A stretch of DNA of 64,000 nt from Escherichia coli (GTDB lineage: Bacteria > Pseudomonadota > Gammaproteobacteria > Enterobacterales > Enterobacteriaceae). The stretch lies in assembly GCF_044324785.1 (NCBI RefSeq), contig NZ_CP172127.1. One strand, 5' to 3'. This document shows positions 28,791 through 59,597 of this stretch, piece after piece; the stretch's first letter is position 1, and each line of letters opens with the position of its first letter. A program made the translations under genes and the position numbers. The notes under the pieces are model-generated. The model worked only from the letters and a program-made list of their open reading frames with translations, searched no databases and had not been told where the DNA came from.

Positions 28791-31127
28791 ATGAAGCAAA
28801 TTCGTCTGCTGGCGCAGTATTATGTTGACCTGATGATGAAGTTAGGTCTGGTGCGCTTCTCAATGTTGCTGGCGCTGGCCCTCGTCGTTCTTGCCATTGT
28901 GGTACAAATGGCAGTGACCATGGTGCTGCATGGTCAGGTCGAAAGCATTGATGTTATTCGTTCTATCTTCTTTGGTTTGCTGATTACGCCGTGGGCGGTC
29001 TACTTTCTATCGGTGGTTGTCGAGCAACTGGAGGAGTCACGGCAACGTCTGTCACGGCTGGTGCAAAAACTGGAGGAGATGCGCGAGCGCGATTTGAGCC
29101 TCAACGTTCAGTTAAAAGATAATATTGCCCAGCTAAATCAGGAAATCGCCGTTCGTGAAAAAGCGGAAGCAGAACTGCAGGAAACCTTCGGCCAACTGAA
29201 AATTGAAATTAAAGAGCGCGAAGAGACACAAATTCAGCTCGAACAGCAATCCTCATTCTTACGTTCCTTCCTTGATGCTTCACCCGACCTGGTTTTTTAT
29301 CGTAACGAAGATAAAGAGTTTTCCGGCTGTAACCGCGCGATGGAGCTGCTGACCGGAAAAAGCGAAAAACAACTGGTTCACCTGAAACCTGCTGATGTTT
29401 ACTCACCGGAAGCCGCTGCGAAAGTCATTGAAACCGATGAAAAAGTGTTCCGTCATAATGTGTCACTGACCTATGAGCAGTGGCTGGATTATCCCGACGG
29501 ACGCAAAGCCTGCTTTGAAATCCGTAAAGTGCCGTACTACGACCGCGTGGGTAAACGTCACGGTTTGATGGGCTTTGGTCGCGACATTACCGAGCGTAAG
29601 CGGTATCAGGATGCACTTGAACGCGCCAGCCGCGACAAAACGACGTTTATCTCCACCATCAGTCACGAATTGCGTACACCGCTGAACGGTATCGTCGGCC
29701 TGAGCCGCATTCTGCTGGATACCGAACTCACCGCCGAGCAGGAAAAATATCTCAAAACCATCCATGTTTCTGCCGTCACGCTGGGGAATATCTTTAACGA
29801 TATTATCGACATGGATAAGATGGAACGGCGCAAGGTCCAGCTTGATAATCAACCGGTTGATTTCACCAGCTTCCTTGCCGATCTGGAAAATCTCTCCGCA
29901 TTGCAGGCGCAACAAAAAGGATTGCGCTTTAATCTGGAGCCTACGCTGCCATTACCGCATCAGGTCATTACCGACGGGACGCGTTTACGGCAAATCCTGT
30001 GGAACCTCATCAGTAACGCCGTCAAATTCACCCAGCAAGGCCAGGTTACCGTGCGCGTGCGCTACGATGAAGGCGATATGCTGCATTTTGAAGTGGAAGA
30101 CTCTGGTATCGGCATTCCGCAGGATGAGCTGGATAAAATCTTCGCCATGTATTACCAGGTGAAAGACAGTCATGGCGGTAAACCTGCCACCGGCACCGGT
30201 ATTGGTCTGGCCGTTTCTCGTCGTCTGGCGAAAAATATGGGCGGCGATATTACGGTTACCAGCGAACAGGGCAAAGGTTCAACCTTTACGTTGACGATCC
30301 ACGCACCGTCGGTGGCAGAAGAGGTCGATGATGCGTTTGATGAAGACGATATGCCTTTACCGGCGCTGAATGTGCTGCTGGTGGAAGACATTGAACTGAA
30401 CGTGATTGTCGCGCGTTCTGTGCTGGAAAAATTAGGTAACAGCGTTGATGTCGCCATGACCGGCAAGGCGGCGCTGGAGATGTTTAAACCGGGCGAATAC
30501 GACCTGGTATTGCTGGATATTCAGTTGCCAGATATGACCGGGCTGGATATCTCTCGTGAACTGACGAAGCGTTATCCGCGCGAGGATTTACCGCCGCTGG
30601 TGGCCTTAACCGCTAACGTGCTGAAAGACAAACAAGAGTACCTCAATGCTGGAATGGATGATGTGCTGAGTAAGCCGCTTTCTGTTCCGGCGCTAACCGC
30701 GATGATCAAGAAATTCTGGGATACCCAGGATGATGAGGAGAGTACGGTGACGACAGAAGAGAACAGTAAATCAGAAGCATTGCTCGATATTCCCATGCTG
30801 GAACAGTATCTCGAACTTGTAGGACCGAAGCTGATCACCGACGGGTTAGCGGTGTTTGAGAAGATGATGCCGGGCTATGTCAGCGTGCTGGAGTCGAATC
30901 TGACGGCGCAGGATAAAAAAGGCATTGTTGAGGAAGGACATAAAATTAAAGGTGCGGCGGGGTCAGTGGGGTTACGCCATCTGCAACAGCTGGGTCAGCA
31001 AATTCAGTCTCCTGACCTTCCCGCCTGGGAAGATAACGTCGGTGAATGGATTGAAGAGATGAAAGAAGAGTGGCGTCACGACGTAGAAGTGCTGAAAGCG
31101 TGGGTGGCAAAAGCCACTAAAAAATGA
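28791..31127 (+). CDS. arcB: aerobic respiration control sensor kinase ArcB (hybrid histidine kinase)
   Basis: 778-aa ORF: TM region, PAS, HisKA (SHELRTPLN), HATPase, receiver and HPt domains. Confidence 0.97.
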   Translation: MKQIRLLAQYYVDLMMKLGLVRFSMLLALALVVLAIVVQMAVTMVLHGQVESIDVIRSIFFGLLITPWAVYFLSVVVEQLEESRQRLSRLVQKLEEMRERDLSLNVQLKDNIAQLNQEIAVREKAEAELQETFGQLKIEIKEREETQIQLEQQSSFLRSFLDASPDLVFYRNEDKEFSGCNRAMELLTGKSEKQLVHLKPADVYSPEAAAKVIETDEKVFRHNVSLTYEQWLDYPDGRKACFEIRKVPYYDRVGKRHGLMGFGRDITERKRYQDALERASRDKTTFISTISHELRTPLNGIVGLSRILLDTELTAEQEKYLKTIHVSAVTLGNIFNDIIDMDKMERRKVQLDNQPVDFTSFLADLENLSALQAQQKGLRFNLEPTLPLPHQVITDGTRLRQILWNLISNAVKFTQQGQVTVRVRYDEGDMLHFEVEDSGIGIPQDELDKIFAMYYQVKDSHGGKPATGTGIGLAVSRRLAKNMGGDITVTSEQGKGSTFTLTIHAPSVAEEVDDAFDEDDMPLPALNVLLVEDIELNVIVARSVLEKLGNSVDVAMTGKAALEMFKPGEYDLVLLDIQLPDMTGLDISRELTKRYPREDLPPLVALTANVLKDKQEYLNAGMDDVLSKPLSVPALTAMIKKFWDTQDDEESTVTTEENSKSEALLDIPMLEQYLELVGPKLITDGLAVFEKMMPGYVSVLESNLTAQDKKGIVEEGHKIKGAAGSVGLRHLQQLGQQIQSPDLPAWEDNVGEWIEEMKEEWRHDVEVLKAWVAKATKK

Positions 31128-31239
31128 CCCCGGCTAGACCGGGGTGCGCGAATACTGCGCCAACACCAGGGAAATCTTGGCTGCGCCGTAAATTATTATG
31201 ATGAGTTACAAGGGCACAGCACTGTTTTTCAGGCCGCAC
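31119..31239 (-). ncRNA. arcZ: ArcZ sRNA (RyhA/SraH), Hfq-dependent
   Basis: Minus-strand sequence gtgcggcctgaaaaacagtgctgtgccc...ccccggtctagccggggtcatttttt recognised as ArcZ, 121 nt, 3' terminator hairpin; its 3' end overlaps the arcB stop codon on the opposite strand. Confidence 0.85.
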
Positions 31240-31356
31240 GCAGTTAAGATAGCAAAACTTAAATGATTTGTTACATGAATCAGTTAAATGTGTGATGCGT
31301 AGCATTTTTATTAAAAAAATTAATGTGTTTCAGTCAATTGCGAAAGGATGATCACA

Positions 31357-32010
31357 ATGAAGAAAATTGGCGTAATTCTGAGCGGATGCGGCGTCTATGA
31401 CGGTTCTGAAATTCATGAAGCGGTGTTGACGTTGTTAGCTATTTCACGCAGCGGTGCACAGGCGGTCTGCTTTGCACCGGATAAACAGCAGGTTGATGTT
31501 ATCAACCATTTAACTGGCGAAGCGATGACGGAAACGCGCAATGTGCTGATTGAAGCGGCACGAATAACGCGCGGTGAAATCCGTCCTCTGGCCCAGGCTG
31601 ATGCTGCTGAACTGGATGCGTTGATTGTGCCGGGGGGTTTTGGCGCGGCAAAGAATTTAAGCAATTTTGCCAGTCTTGGTAGCGAATGCACCGTTGACCG
31701 TGAATTAAAGGCGCTGGCACAAGCGATGCATCAGGCCGGAAAACCGCTTGGTTTTATGTGTATTGCCCCGGCGATGCTGCCGAAAATTTTCGATTTCCCG
31801 CTGCGTTTGACCATCGGTACTGATATTGATACCGCAGAAGTGCTGGAAGAGATGGGCGCGGAGCATGTGCCGTGTCCTGTCGATGATATCGTGGTTGATG
31901 AAGACAATAAGATTGTCACCACCCCGGCATATATGCTGGCGCAGAACATTGCAGAAGCGGCGAGCGGCATTGATAAGCTGGTTTCCCGCGTGCTGGTCCT
32001 GGCGGAATGA
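31357..32010 (+). CDS. elbB: DJ-1/PfpI-family glyoxalase-like protein ElbB
   Basis: ORF 31348..32010; second ATG at 31357 ([21 protein letters not shown]) has AGGA at proper spacing, 217 aa. Confidence 0.9.
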
Positions 32011-32735
32011 GTAAAAGCCGCTTAACGGTGTTTAGTTTCATTCGCCGTTTTCTTCTGCGGTTAATGGTTGTCCTCGCCGTTTTCTGGGGCGGGGGCATTG
32101 CGTTGTTTAGCGTTGCGCCTGTTCCTTTCTCTGCGGTAATGGTCGAGCGGCAAGTCAGCGCCTGGCTGCATGGCAATTTTCGTTACGTGGCACATTCTGA
32201 CTGGGTCAACATGGATCAAATCTCGCCGTGGATGGGACTGGCGGTGATTGCCGCAGAAGATCAGAAGTTTCCTGAGCACTGGGGCTTTGATGTCGCTTCC
32301 ATTGAGCAAGCCCTGGCGCACAACGAGCGCAATGAAAACCGTATTCGCGGTGCTTCAACGATTTCTCAGCAGACGGCCAAAAATCTCTTTTTATGGGATG
32401 GGCGTAGCTGGGTTCGAAAAGGGCTGGAAGCTGGATTAACGCTGGGGATAGAAACGGTCTGGAGCAAAAAGCGTATCCTGACGGTTTACCTGAATATCGC
32501 CGAATTTGGCGACGGTGTGTTTGGCGTCGAAGCTGCGGCACAACGTTATTTCCACAAACCCGCGAGCAAACTTACCCGCTCGGAAGCTGCATTACTGGCT
32601 GCTGTATTACCTAATCCACTTCGTTTCAAAGTCTCCGCGCCATCGGGCTACGTGCGTAGCCGTCAGGCGTGGATTTTACGGCAGATGTATCAGTTAGGCG
32701 GTGAGTCGTTTATGCAACAGCACCAGCTGGATTAA
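32007..32735 (+). CDS. mtgA: monofunctional peptidoglycan glycosyltransferase
   Basis: 242-aa ORF with N-terminal TM helix and GT51 motifs; ATGA overlap with elbB stop. Confidence 0.93.
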
Positions 32736-33364
32736 GCTTCGCGCGAAGTGAGGGCCAGCGTTTTGCTCTCACGAGGTTGCAGATCTTTCTGCAGGGCAAT
32801 AGCCAGCGCCGGTTGGGCGATAAATCGTTTCCATAACCGCTCTTGCTTACGCAGACAACACCACTTCGACCAGGTCGCCAGTGGAATCAATGTGCTTTCA
32901 CCAATGTTGTCGCAGACGACTGGGATAACCTCTGACTCACTGATGCGGTGACAGAGGATATTCTGCGGCTTCAGCGACATCGTCACGATACGGTTATCCT
33001 GCAAATAACGCTTCAGCTGTTTCAGTAACTGGCGCAGTTGTGCAATGTCTTCTTCGTAACGGCATTGTTCTGCAAATTCGGTCAGCGTAATGGAAGGCTT
33101 GCCGTCGAAATCGGCAATCACATCGTAGACATAACCGGTTCCGCAATCCGTCTCAACGGTACCGTGATAGCGCGGTATTCCACTCCAGTCTTTTAACCGG
33201 CGACCAAGATGCGCGTAGTACTTTAACTCACGGCGGATCTCTTTATCGCCACCATCGCCACGATGGTAGACAATCTTGATACAGCGTTGGGCATCTTCCG
33301 GATGCGCATAACATTTCCGATGTCTTCCGGTGCCCAGGGGACTTTGTTCAGATAAGCGAATCAT
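32732..33364 (-). CDS. yrbL: PhoP-regulated uncharacterised protein YrbL
   Basis: 210-aa [27 protein letters not shown]...; PhoP-box-like direct repeat upstream; convergent 4-nt overlap with mtgA. Confidence 0.88.
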
Positions 33365-51233: not shown

Positions 51234-51242
51234 TCAGCAAAA

Positions 51243-51270
51243 CCCCGGCCATGTGCCGGGGTTTCTTTTT
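51243..51270. terminator. bidirectional terminator between obgE and dacB
   Basis: ccccggc-catgt-gccgggg stem-loop followed by tttcttttt; dacB stop immediately adjacent on the other strand. Confidence 0.8.
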
Positions 51271-52706: not shown

Positions 52707-52825
52707 AATCTCGCGCTAACAACCTGGAATCGAGCCGTCATACTACGGCGCAACGCCCTATAAAGTAAACGATGACCCTTCGGGAACTTCAGGGTAAAAT
52801 GACTATCAAAATGTGAATTGTAGCT

Positions 52826-52860
52826 GACCTGGGACTTGTACCCGGGTCGGTATTTTTTTG
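52826..52860 (+). terminator. intrinsic terminator inside greA leader (3' end of GraL leader sRNA)
   Basis: gacctggg-acttgta-cccgggtc stem-loop followed by ggtattttttt, about 95 nt upstream of greA ATG on the greA strand. Confidence 0.65.
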
Positions 52861-59510: not shown

Positions 59511-59597
59511 GCCGAGGTGGTGGAATTGGTAGACACGCTACCTTGAGGTGGTAGTGCCCAATAGGGCTTACGGGTTCAAGTCCCGTCCTCGGTACCA
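59511..59597 (+). tRNA. leuU: tRNA-Leu (anticodon GAG)
   Basis: 87-nt sequence gccgaggtgg...ccttGAGgtgg...gggttcaagtcccgtcctcggtacca with long variable arm and acceptor-stem complementarity; 14 nt after secG. Confidence 0.93.

Follow-up and report, generated by a model that had tools for sequence, protein, structure and literature searches.

The arcZ small RNA gene and its convergent 3' overlap with arcB in an Escherichia coli genome

Genomic context and identity of arcZ

The window, which is the whole stretch of 64,000 nucleotides of E. coli DNA that was analysed, contains the following genes in the region described here.

28791..31127, + strand: arcB, encoding the sensor histidine kinase ArcB of 778 aa (open reading frame list, Pfam, RefSeq annotation of a near-identical locus).
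31119..31239, − strand: arcZ, encoding the primary 121-nt ArcZ (SraH/RyhA) small RNA, with its start at 31239 and its 3' end at 31119 (identity to K-12, Rfam).
31357..32010, + strand: elbB, 654 nt encoding 217 aa, the next gene downstream of arcB (RefSeq annotation of matching loci, open reading frame list).

The product of arcB was found to possess the full set of Pfam domains of ArcB (HKR_ArcB_TM, PAS, HisKA, HATPase_c, Response_reg and Hpt), with the last codons reading A-T-K-K-stop and the TGA stop lying at 31125-31127, where the first-pass annotation of this DNA had placed it. The same annotation had assigned the convergent transcript on the opposite strand to ArcZ, and this assignment agrees with the curated sequence, as all 121 of the 121 positions of 31119-31239 (−) match the K-12 arcZ ncRNA (b4450, NC_000913.3 3350577..3350697). 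The Rfam model RF00081 (ArcZ; gathering score of 66) was matched at 31239..31132 (−) over its full extent (1-106) with 120.8 bits (E = 4e-27), and the RNA has a minimum free energy of −42.3 kcal/mol (z = −2.71 against shuffled sequences). It is thus almost certain that the region represents arcZ of an E. coli strain, running on the − strand from 31239 to a Rho-independent terminator with a U-tail that ends at 31119.

The locus closely follows that of K-12 (b4450, RF00081). The RNA is identical, the neighbours are alike with arcB convergent and elbB on the other side, and the 9-nt overlap with arcB, the RNase E site, the seed and the terminator are common to both. Over the 601 positions of 30900-31500 there are 4 differences from K-12, all of them in the flanks and none in the RNA itself; one of these, 31302, lies in the region upstream of the promoter and in codon 2 of a spurious open reading frame that is treated below. 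The arcZ locus was found in 5416 of 5426 complete E. coli genomes. The annotation of arcZ is confirmed here, and it should be noted that genomes annotated by PGAP, such as NZ_AP022261, carry no feature between arcB and elbB.

Terminator and overlap with arcB

Two features at the 3' end of ArcZ define its relationship with arcB.

31127..31145, − strand: Rho-independent terminator hairpin of ArcZ, A-CCCCGG-U CUA G-CCGGGG-U (terminator scan, single-sequence fold).
31119..31127, − strand: 3' tail of ArcZ, UCAUUUUUU, forming the 9-nt overlap with arcB as the reverse complement of AAA AAA TGA (read directly).

A terminator scan of 30800-31500 returned a single site, on the − strand at 31145..31127, with eight pairs (six of them G-C) followed by CATTTTTT; shuffled sequences gave 0.6 ± 0.6 terminator-like sites. 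The core stem CCCCGG/CCGGGG (31144-31139 / 31133-31128) lies wholly 3' of the arcB stop, in the arcB 3' UTR. The part of ArcZ inside arcB consists of the tail CAUUUUUU (31126-31119) and one base of the extended stem, its closing U at 31127, which is complementary to the A of TGA, so it is the U-tract and not the stem that covers the last arcB codons. It had been claimed that both the terminator stem and the U-tract extend over these codons and the stop. This holds for the U-tract but not for the stem, of which the core (31144-31128) is beyond the stop and the closing U alone is inside, and the geometry is corrected here to a coding sequence overlapped by the U-tract rather than by the stem. 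With TGA placed directly 3' of the stem on the ArcZ strand, the tail becomes the reverse complement of the Lys-Lys-stop of arcB. The overlap (31119-31127) of two Lys codons and the stop is 9 nt in length, equal to that of K-12 (3350689-3350697).

Predicted processing of ArcZ

Four features were assigned within the RNA.

31119..31174, − strand: mature processed 56-nt 3' ArcZ, the active, seed-bearing form (published motif and product length; cleavage predicted here).
31143..31171, − strand: conserved seed region with internal hairpin, CCCUGGUGUUGGCGCA ... GCGCACC (capital-letter consensus of the Rfam alignment).
31160-31157 / 31149-31146, − strand: predicted GCGC/GCGC stem in the seed region (consensus fold).
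31180..31220, − strand: stem-loop in the 5' part of the precursor, GCUGUGCC ... GGCGCAGC (Rfam structure line).

The RNase E cleavage motif GA|UUU (Chao et al. 2017, PMC5222698) falls between nt 65 (31175) and nt 66 (31174), and the sequence from UUUCCC to the 3' end amounts to exactly the 56 nt of the published mature form (PMC5222698, PMC11331407). The processed 3' fragment, to which the first-pass annotation had pointed as a mark of ArcZ, is thus present. In the form GA|UUUCCCUGGUGUUGGCGCA, the seed follows directly on the putative RNase E site (R-N|W-U-U), where cleavage would leave a mature form of approximately 56 nt, and UUUCCC (GUUCCC in a few cases) precedes the seed in essentially all of at least 120 related loci.

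The 26-nt core of the seed has exact matches in at least 120 genomes of about 40 genera; as it is invariant by the design of the search, it says nothing about covariation or codon-position patterns. The GCGC/GCGC stem is likewise invariant and hence gives no covariation evidence for the stem. The 5' half of ArcZ varies in both sequence and length, with indels and substitutions between the genera of a 31-genus alignment.

Expression of ArcZ, its binding to Hfq and its processing by RNase E are established for K-12 and Salmonella (PMC11331407, PMC5222698), and transcription, the 3' end, processing and Hfq binding at the present locus are taken over from that work on identical or near-identical sequence. 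By this analogy, the 121-nt precursor, identical to that of K-12, would bind Hfq, and RNase E would cut at GA|UUU (31175|31174) and free the seed-bearing 3' fragment of 56 nt. As in K-12, the expected partners of this fragment for pairing in trans would be the mRNAs of rpoS, flhDC, tpx, sdaC and mutS, among many others.

Promoter prediction

A scan for the sigma-70 consensus upstream of 31239 gave no promoter, with the extended −10 falling below threshold. Phylogenetic footprinting instead pointed to a promoter that consists of an extended −10 and a weak −35.

31246..31254, − strand: putative extended −10, TG (31254-31253) c TATCTT (31251-31246), at −15 to −7 relative to the start at 31239 (placed by its distance from the curated 5' end).
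31269..31274, − strand: putative −35-like hexamer GTAACA with a 17-nt spacer (4/6 match to TTGACA).
31277..31295, − strand: conserved upstream block TCACAcATTTaAcTGAtTC, a candidate operator (phylogenetic footprint; TCACA invariant in 31/31 genera).

The −10 region was found to be kept as TTTGCTAT(C/G)TT across 31 genera, in which TGTAACA is also nearly invariant. Scanning 31225-31350 for ArcA boxes, either as TGTTA-N6-TGTTA or as the 15-mer GTTAATTAAATGTTA, gave weak matches with 3/10 and 5-6/15 mismatches respectively, and so no ArcA site is named. According to a review ArcA-P binds the arcZ promoter (PMC11331407); an ArcA ChIP-seq study detected no binding upstream of this gene (PMC3798270).

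Conservation of the overlap in the Enterobacterales

The locus was compared with others collected by exact matches to the 26-nt seed, giving at least 120 loci and leaving out taxa in which the seed differs by one base; the proportions of genera given below describe a sample of listed loci and not a census. Among the matches listed, the C-terminus of ArcB was on the opposite strand in 119 of 121 loci examined, the window being counted. The arcB stop abuts the ArcZ terminator stem in 98 of the 119 loci listed, which come from about 40 genera of four families, and the overlap is then 9-11 nt. These 98 stops comprise 64 TGA and 34 TAA. Every tabulated ArcB tail of this class ends in KK*, an end that is unavoidable where the ArcZ strand has six or more U after the stop. 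Following the stem, U(C/U)A and then 5-8 U were present in all 119 loci listed, including those with the arcB stop elsewhere.

Reduction or loss of the overlap was seen in 19 of the 119 loci listed, mainly in Pantoea, Chimaeribacter, Mixta, Morganella and Pluralibacter. Ten cases with the arcB stop 4-78 nt short of the ArcZ 3' end belong to Pantoea (seven), Chimaeribacter (two) and Mixta (one), with ArcZ fully kept. The overlap is also described as reduced or lost in Pectobacterium, where ArcZ is retained (PMC11331407).

The terminator itself shows covariation. A consensus fold of 38 unique sequences gave eight pairs with compensatory GC/AU/GU changes at three inner pairs, the A-U closing pair being invariant in 38/38, and the mean hairpin free energy over the 119 loci listed was −12.9 kcal/mol. 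In comparison with ArcZ of Salmonella, Yersinia, Photorhabdus/Xenorhabdus, Erwinia, Proteus and others, the invariant 3' seed, the terminator hairpin, the U(C/U)A with U-tract, the convergent arcB and the conserved promoter blocks are held in common. The differences lie in the sequence and length of the 5' half, in compensatory stem substitutions such as CCCCAAC/GUUGGGG in the Morganellaceae, and in the stop, which in many genera is TAA where arcB of the window has TGA.

Four single loci deviate from this pattern, which could reflect frameshifts, assembly errors or real variants. In a Pantoea locus (L013) the arcB stop is within the hairpin loop, and in Serratia sp. M24T3 (L118) the arcB frame reads through; a further locus (L068) has a G-to-A change at the last stem base. 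In a Kluyvera locus (L080) the ArcB alignment stops at residue 122 of the 160-residue query. One short-arcB case in Kluyvera is probably an alignment artefact.

Discussion

The arrangement of ArcZ and arcB is already known and of textbook standing. An overlap of approximately ten bases and a Rho-independent terminator have been described in a review (PMC11331407; see also PMC10948607), to whose statement that the overlap is usual the present survey only adds numbers. The view of the first-pass annotation, that this is a known arrangement tying the small RNA to the gene of its own regulator, is borne out by that review, the overlap being as in K-12. ArcZ and arcB mRNA repress each other and ArcA-P represses arcZ (PMC11331407; PMC10948607), and the target of ArcZ in arcB is given as the 3' UTR together with 6 nt of coding sequence (PMC4281340). 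Since no T-run follows the hairpin on the arcB strand, arcB transcripts probably run on through arcZ. The 3' UTR of such transcripts would be fully complementary to ArcZ, a complementarity that has been proposed in the literature to underlie the mutual repression of the two RNAs. With ArcA-P also repressing the transcription of arcZ, the Arc two-component system and the neighbouring small RNA would then be joined in a feedback loop.

Whether the overlap as such contributes to this loop is a separate matter. It is quite possible, if a shade short of probable, that the 9-nt coding overlap plays no regulatory role and is mere compact packing, any coupling in cis being effected by read-through from arcB. 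Such a reading is in keeping with Pantoea, Chimaeribacter and Mixta, where arcB ends short and the ArcZ seed, hairpin and U(C/U)A-U-tract are fully retained, and Pectobacterium is alike according to the review, which also calls the antisense mechanism speculative (PMC11331407). On the other hand, the abutment of stop and stem in most of the loci listed, in four families and with both TGA and TAA, is more persistent than neutrality suggests, although shared ancestry could account for much of this.

A more specific proposal is that U(C/U)A is set by ArcZ, for termination or for Hfq, and was taken by arcB as its stop, thereby fixing the Lys-Lys end, and also that the upstream block serves as operator for some regulator that acts in place of ArcA or together with it. 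A constraint from the ArcZ side is hinted at by the retention of U(C/U)A in every locus listed even where the arcB stop is elsewhere. Another regulator at 31277-31295 was considered because of the poor fit to the ArcA consensus and the lack of a site in the ChIP-seq study (PMC3798270). That both parts of this proposal are correct is, however, unlikely.

It is also unlikely that the hairpin (31127-31145) terminates transcription in both directions and so ends arcB as well as arcZ, in which case the two RNAs would share few complementary bases and no long antisense 3' UTR would be formed. The hairpin is strong, at about −13 kcal/mol, and on the + strand it is preceded by an A-run, AAAAAA (31119-31124). 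Such a run before the hairpin is common in bidirectional terminators between convergent genes. However, the stem is followed on the + strand by TGCGCGAATACTGCGCC, with no T-run, and this sequence is the complement of the invariant ArcZ seed in all loci listed, so that a U-tract at this place is impossible in any genus sampled. No terminator-like site was found on the + strand within 30800-31500, and the secondary literature has ArcZ acting on an arcB 3' UTR (PMC4281340). A bidirectional intrinsic terminator was accordingly considered unlikely, the U-tract being on the − strand alone and the + strand stem running into TGCGCGAATACTG. Read-through of arcB into arcZ, as set out above, is the preferred reading.

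One further feature of the locus is an open reading frame which had already been suspected to be false, a view supported here by six independent lines.

31117..31305, − strand: spurious 62-codon open reading frame (ATG) across the arcZ promoter and the entire ArcZ (mechanical open reading frame list).

That this frame is a real small-protein gene, or that ArcZ is a dual-function RNA encoding a peptide, has next to no likelihood. The frame is open for 62 codons from an ATG and is also open in another E. coli genome (L078). Against this, the ATG (31305) falls within the conserved promoter, 66 nt before the ArcZ start. The bases ahead of it read AAUAAAA and contain no Shine-Dalgarno sequence. The stop (31119-31117) extends past the ArcZ 3' end, so that ArcZ holds neither a start nor a complete stop. 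The frame is also not conserved, with ATG changed to ACG in E. albertii, E. whittamii and one divergent genome labelled E. coli, and with in-frame stops in Salmonella, Citrobacter, Klebsiella and Pseudescherichia. Of 108 loci listed, 14 have an open reading frame of at least 50 aa over the seed in this frame, with boundaries that are not homologous; for the other two sense frames the numbers are 37 and 29. No match to Pfam was obtained at E ≤ 1, the exact 62-aa sequence was not found in a collection of about 15 billion proteins, and the RefSeq annotation of matching loci has no CDS at this position. A peptide-coding ArcZ is rejected on these grounds, namely the start and stop outside the RNA, the missing Shine-Dalgarno sequence, the unconserved frame and the lack of a homologue. 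The 62-codon frame is a chance open frame and not a gene, and is removed from the annotation.

ArcZ and arcB resemble 3'-overlapping cis-antisense pairs such as GadY-gadX, in which a small RNA is likewise convergent with the gene of a regulator and complementary to its 3' region, and mutual effects at the RNA level have been reported for ArcZ and arcB (PMC11331407, PMC4281340, PMC10948607). The two pairs differ in that GadY stabilises gadX mRNA whereas ArcZ lowers arcB mRNA (literature cited in PMC4281340). Unlike the GadY-gadX type, ArcZ is chiefly a trans-acting, Hfq-dependent small RNA with hundreds of targets, and its link to arcB in cis is a side feature. ArcZ and ArcB remain an established case of a small RNA linked by feedback to the two-component system by which it is controlled, a picture that is unchanged by the present analysis, and this wiring ties the sensing of oxygen to RpoS, motility and virulence.

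Identity and predicted processing of ArcZ

The placement of ArcZ at 31119-31239 by the first-pass annotation was borne out by database comparison. On the - strand, this stretch and the curated K-12 MG1655 arcZ ncRNA (b4450, NC_000913.3 3350577..3350697) agreed at 121/121 positions. An Rfam scan of the whole window gave a single match to RF00081 (ArcZ) at 31239..31132 (-), which covers the whole model and scores 120.8 bits, above the gathering threshold of 66 (E = 4e-27); the model itself ends inside the ArcZ terminator. A minimum free energy of -42.3 kcal/mol (z = -2.7) was obtained for the 121-nt RNA. Of 5426 complete E. coli genomes, 5416 carry the 601 bases around arcZ at no less than 95% identity; in the window these bases differ from K-12 at four positions, none of them within arcZ. 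Every sequence-level feature that defines ArcZ was looked for and found, and the locus is ArcZ itself, not a relative. It should also be noted that arcZ is annotated in K-12, yet lacks annotation in NZ_AP022261.1, where the E. coli locus L002, near-identical to window 29400-33000, shows no feature between arcB and elbB in the PGAP RefSeq record.

[quoted passage not shown] The cut falls in GA/UUU (slash at the cut), directly 5' of the conserved CCCUGGUGUUGGCGCA, and leaves a 56-nt mature form (PMC5222698; PMC11331407). This motif occupies nt 64-68 of ArcZ in the window, and ArcZ from U66 (31174) onwards is exactly 56 nt long. The processed 3' fragment proposed as a check in the earlier reading is thus predicted here at its expected length, with all of its sequence requirements present.

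Overlap of arcZ with arcB

The following features define the overlap:
28791..31127, + strand, arcB, a 778-aa ORF with the complete ArcB domain set
31144-31139 / 31133-31128, - strand, core stem of the ArcZ terminator, lying wholly past the stop of arcB, in its presumed 3' UTR
31145..31127, - strand, extended ArcZ terminator stem of 8 pairs (terminator scan), adding a U-G pair and a closing A-U pair
31126-31119, - strand, remaining ArcZ tail CAUUUUUU, complement of TG and the Lys codons AAA AAA

The ArcB product contains the ArcB transmembrane domain, PAS, HisKA, HATPase_c, receiver and Hpt domains, and ends in A-T-K-K-TGA with the stop at 31125-31127. As arcZ spans 31119-31239, the two genes share nine bases (31119-31127), the same overlap as in the K-12 annotation (arcB starts 3350689, arcZ ends 3350697). 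The ArcZ strand ends in GCGCA-CCCCGG-UCUAG-CCGGGG-UCAUUUUUU, with the closing U of the stem (31127) being the complement of the A in the arcB TGA. This was the one terminator-like site in 700 bases, compared with 0.6 +/- 0.6 in shuffled sequence. The terminator does therefore overlap the arcB stop codon, as had been claimed. The accompanying statement that the last codons of arcB are covered by both stem and U-tract holds for the U-tract and was slightly overstated for the stem, which contributes a single base.

Position of the arcB stop across Enterobacterales

An exact search with a 26-nt seed piece, using one genome per species, returned at least 120 loci. The matches listed include Enterobacteriaceae, Erwiniaceae, Yersiniaceae and Morganellaceae under approximately 40 genus-level labels. 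Each locus was turned to ArcZ sense, the ArcB C-terminus was found on the opposite strand by tblastn and extended to its stop, and the terminator was folded.

Table. Position of the arcB stop among the matches listed (n=119, 118 genome loci and the window)
Directly after the stem: 98/119 (64 TGA, 34 TAA)
Inside the U-tract: 8/119 (Morganella x3, Pluralibacter x2, Mixta, Pantoea, one Enterobacteriaceae isolate)
No overlap: 11/119 (Pantoea x7, Chimaeribacter x2, Mixta x1, a Kluyvera case)
Anomalous: 2/119 (L013, Pantoea, stop in the hairpin loop; L118, Serratia sp. M24T3, frame reads through)

Among the matches listed, the overlap in the 98 stem-adjoining loci was 9 nt (14 loci), 10 nt (38) or 11 nt (46). 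All tabulated ArcB tails of this class end in Lys-Lys, a necessary outcome where at least six U follow the stop on the ArcZ strand, and the ends in the other classes differ. The Kluyvera locus probably reflects a faulty alignment. A U(C/U)A followed by 5-8 U was present after the stem in all loci among the matches listed, including those with the arcB stop elsewhere. When 38 unique mature-ArcZ sequences were folded to a consensus, compensatory changes (GC, AU, GU) were seen at the three inner stem pairs of the terminator, and the A-U closing pair was invariant.

Ten loci of Pantoea, Mixta and Chimaeribacter (L016, L033, L037, L045, L051, L052, L058, L075, L091 and L109) have the ArcZ tail GGGG-UCA-U7-8 although arcB stops before it reaches the ArcZ 3' end, so that the complement of the former stop codon is kept with no arcB role left. 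Common descent could account for this, as could a constraint imposed by ArcZ.

The arcZ promoter

Three elements were recognized 5' of arcZ:
31254-31246, - strand, extended -10 TG-c-TATCTT, conserved across the order
31274-31269, - strand, -35 GTAACA, near-invariant and conserved across the order
31295-31277, - strand, upstream block TCACAcATTTaAcTGAtTC, 5' of the -35, conserved in 31 Enterobacterales genera with TCACA invariant

The sequence of the -10 region is TG-C-TATCTT-AA, with C at -13 of the extended -10, and 31246-31254 resembles a sigma-S-preferred -10 context. A -10 of this kind would fit the peak of ArcZ in stationary phase. The block at 31277-31295 gave weak matches to ArcA-box consensus patterns. 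An ArcA ChIP-seq study found no site for ArcA in the region 5' of arcZ (PMC3798270); a 2024 review, in conflict with this, describes the promoter as bound by ArcA-P (PMC11331407), and repression of arcZ by ArcA-P has been reported (PMC11331407; PMC10948607).

The ORF drawn across ArcZ

A mechanical ORF list contains one entry over the sRNA:
31117..31305, - strand, 62-codon ORF with an ATG start

Its ATG precedes the 5' end of ArcZ by 66 nt and lies within the conserved promoter, and its stop (31119-31117) runs beyond the 3' end, so that ArcZ contains neither the start nor the complete stop. No Shine-Dalgarno sequence was found before the ATG, where AAUAAAA stands instead. No Pfam match was obtained even at E <= 1, no CDS occurs at this position in K-12 or in a PGAP-annotated near-identical genome, and the exact product was absent among approximately 15 billion predicted proteins. 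Nor is the frame kept: ACG stands in place of the ATG in E. albertii, E. whittamii and one divergent genome labelled E. coli, and stops interrupt the frame in Salmonella, Citrobacter, Klebsiella and Pseudescherichia. A seed-covering ORF of at least 50 aa was present in this frame at 14 of 108 loci, versus 37 and 29 in the other sense frames, and the boundaries of such ORFs over the 108 loci were unrelated. The earlier call of a false ORF is well supported.

Remaining window compared with K-12

Apart from 14654-21198, the window and K-12 are collinear, with approximately 98-99% identity. A yhcG remnant of 274 nt (15162-15435) is followed by a chaperone-usher operon at 15436-21198, in place of K-12 gltF-yhcA-yhcD-yhcE::IS5-yhcF and in the same gene order:
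15436-21198, - strand, ORFs of 260 aa (DUF1120), 233 aa (PapD chaperone), 813 aa (usher), 190 aa and 221 aa (DUF1120)

Amino-acid identity to the K-12 counterparts is 22-39%, and G+C is 0.42 versus 0.52-0.54 in the flanks. A nucleotide match was found in 0 of 5426 complete E. coli RefSeq genomes, sensitive blastn included; E. coli draft assemblies do carry the chaperone and the 190-aa protein. This pattern suggests that a rare lineage has had a fimbrial operon replaced by a xenologous one. At 51236-51243, approximately 152 bp of the K-12 dacB-obgE intergenic region (3330427-3330578) are missing with 6 nt in place, possibly a repetitive extragenic element polymorphism. The four other Rfam matches in the window are as expected, being placed at the collinear K-12 positions of greA, rimP, leuU and metY:
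52737-52858, greA leader
63545-63645, rimP leader
59511-59594, tRNA (leuU)
63380-63453, tRNA (metY)

Probable transcription of arcB over arcZ

ArcZ and arcB mRNA are reported to lower each other's levels (PMC11331407; PMC10948607), and the arcB 3' UTR including six coding bases has been described as the site of ArcZ action (PMC4281340). Read in the arcB direction, the hairpin leads into TGCGCGAAUACUG and lacks a U-run behind it. By sequence it does not qualify as a bidirectional terminator, and the terminator scan found no + strand terminator-like site up to elbB. Given the missing U-run and the lack of such a site as far as elbB, arcB transcription probably continues over arcZ, judging from the sequence, and would then provide the complementary 3' UTR required by an antisense model. 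The nine shared coding bases may or may not matter in their own right; ArcZ is intact in the loci with no arcB overlap among the matches listed. The arrangement of arcZ and arcB is already known, and the locus survey adds only figures to the published account, in which the overlap is the usual state (PMC11331407).
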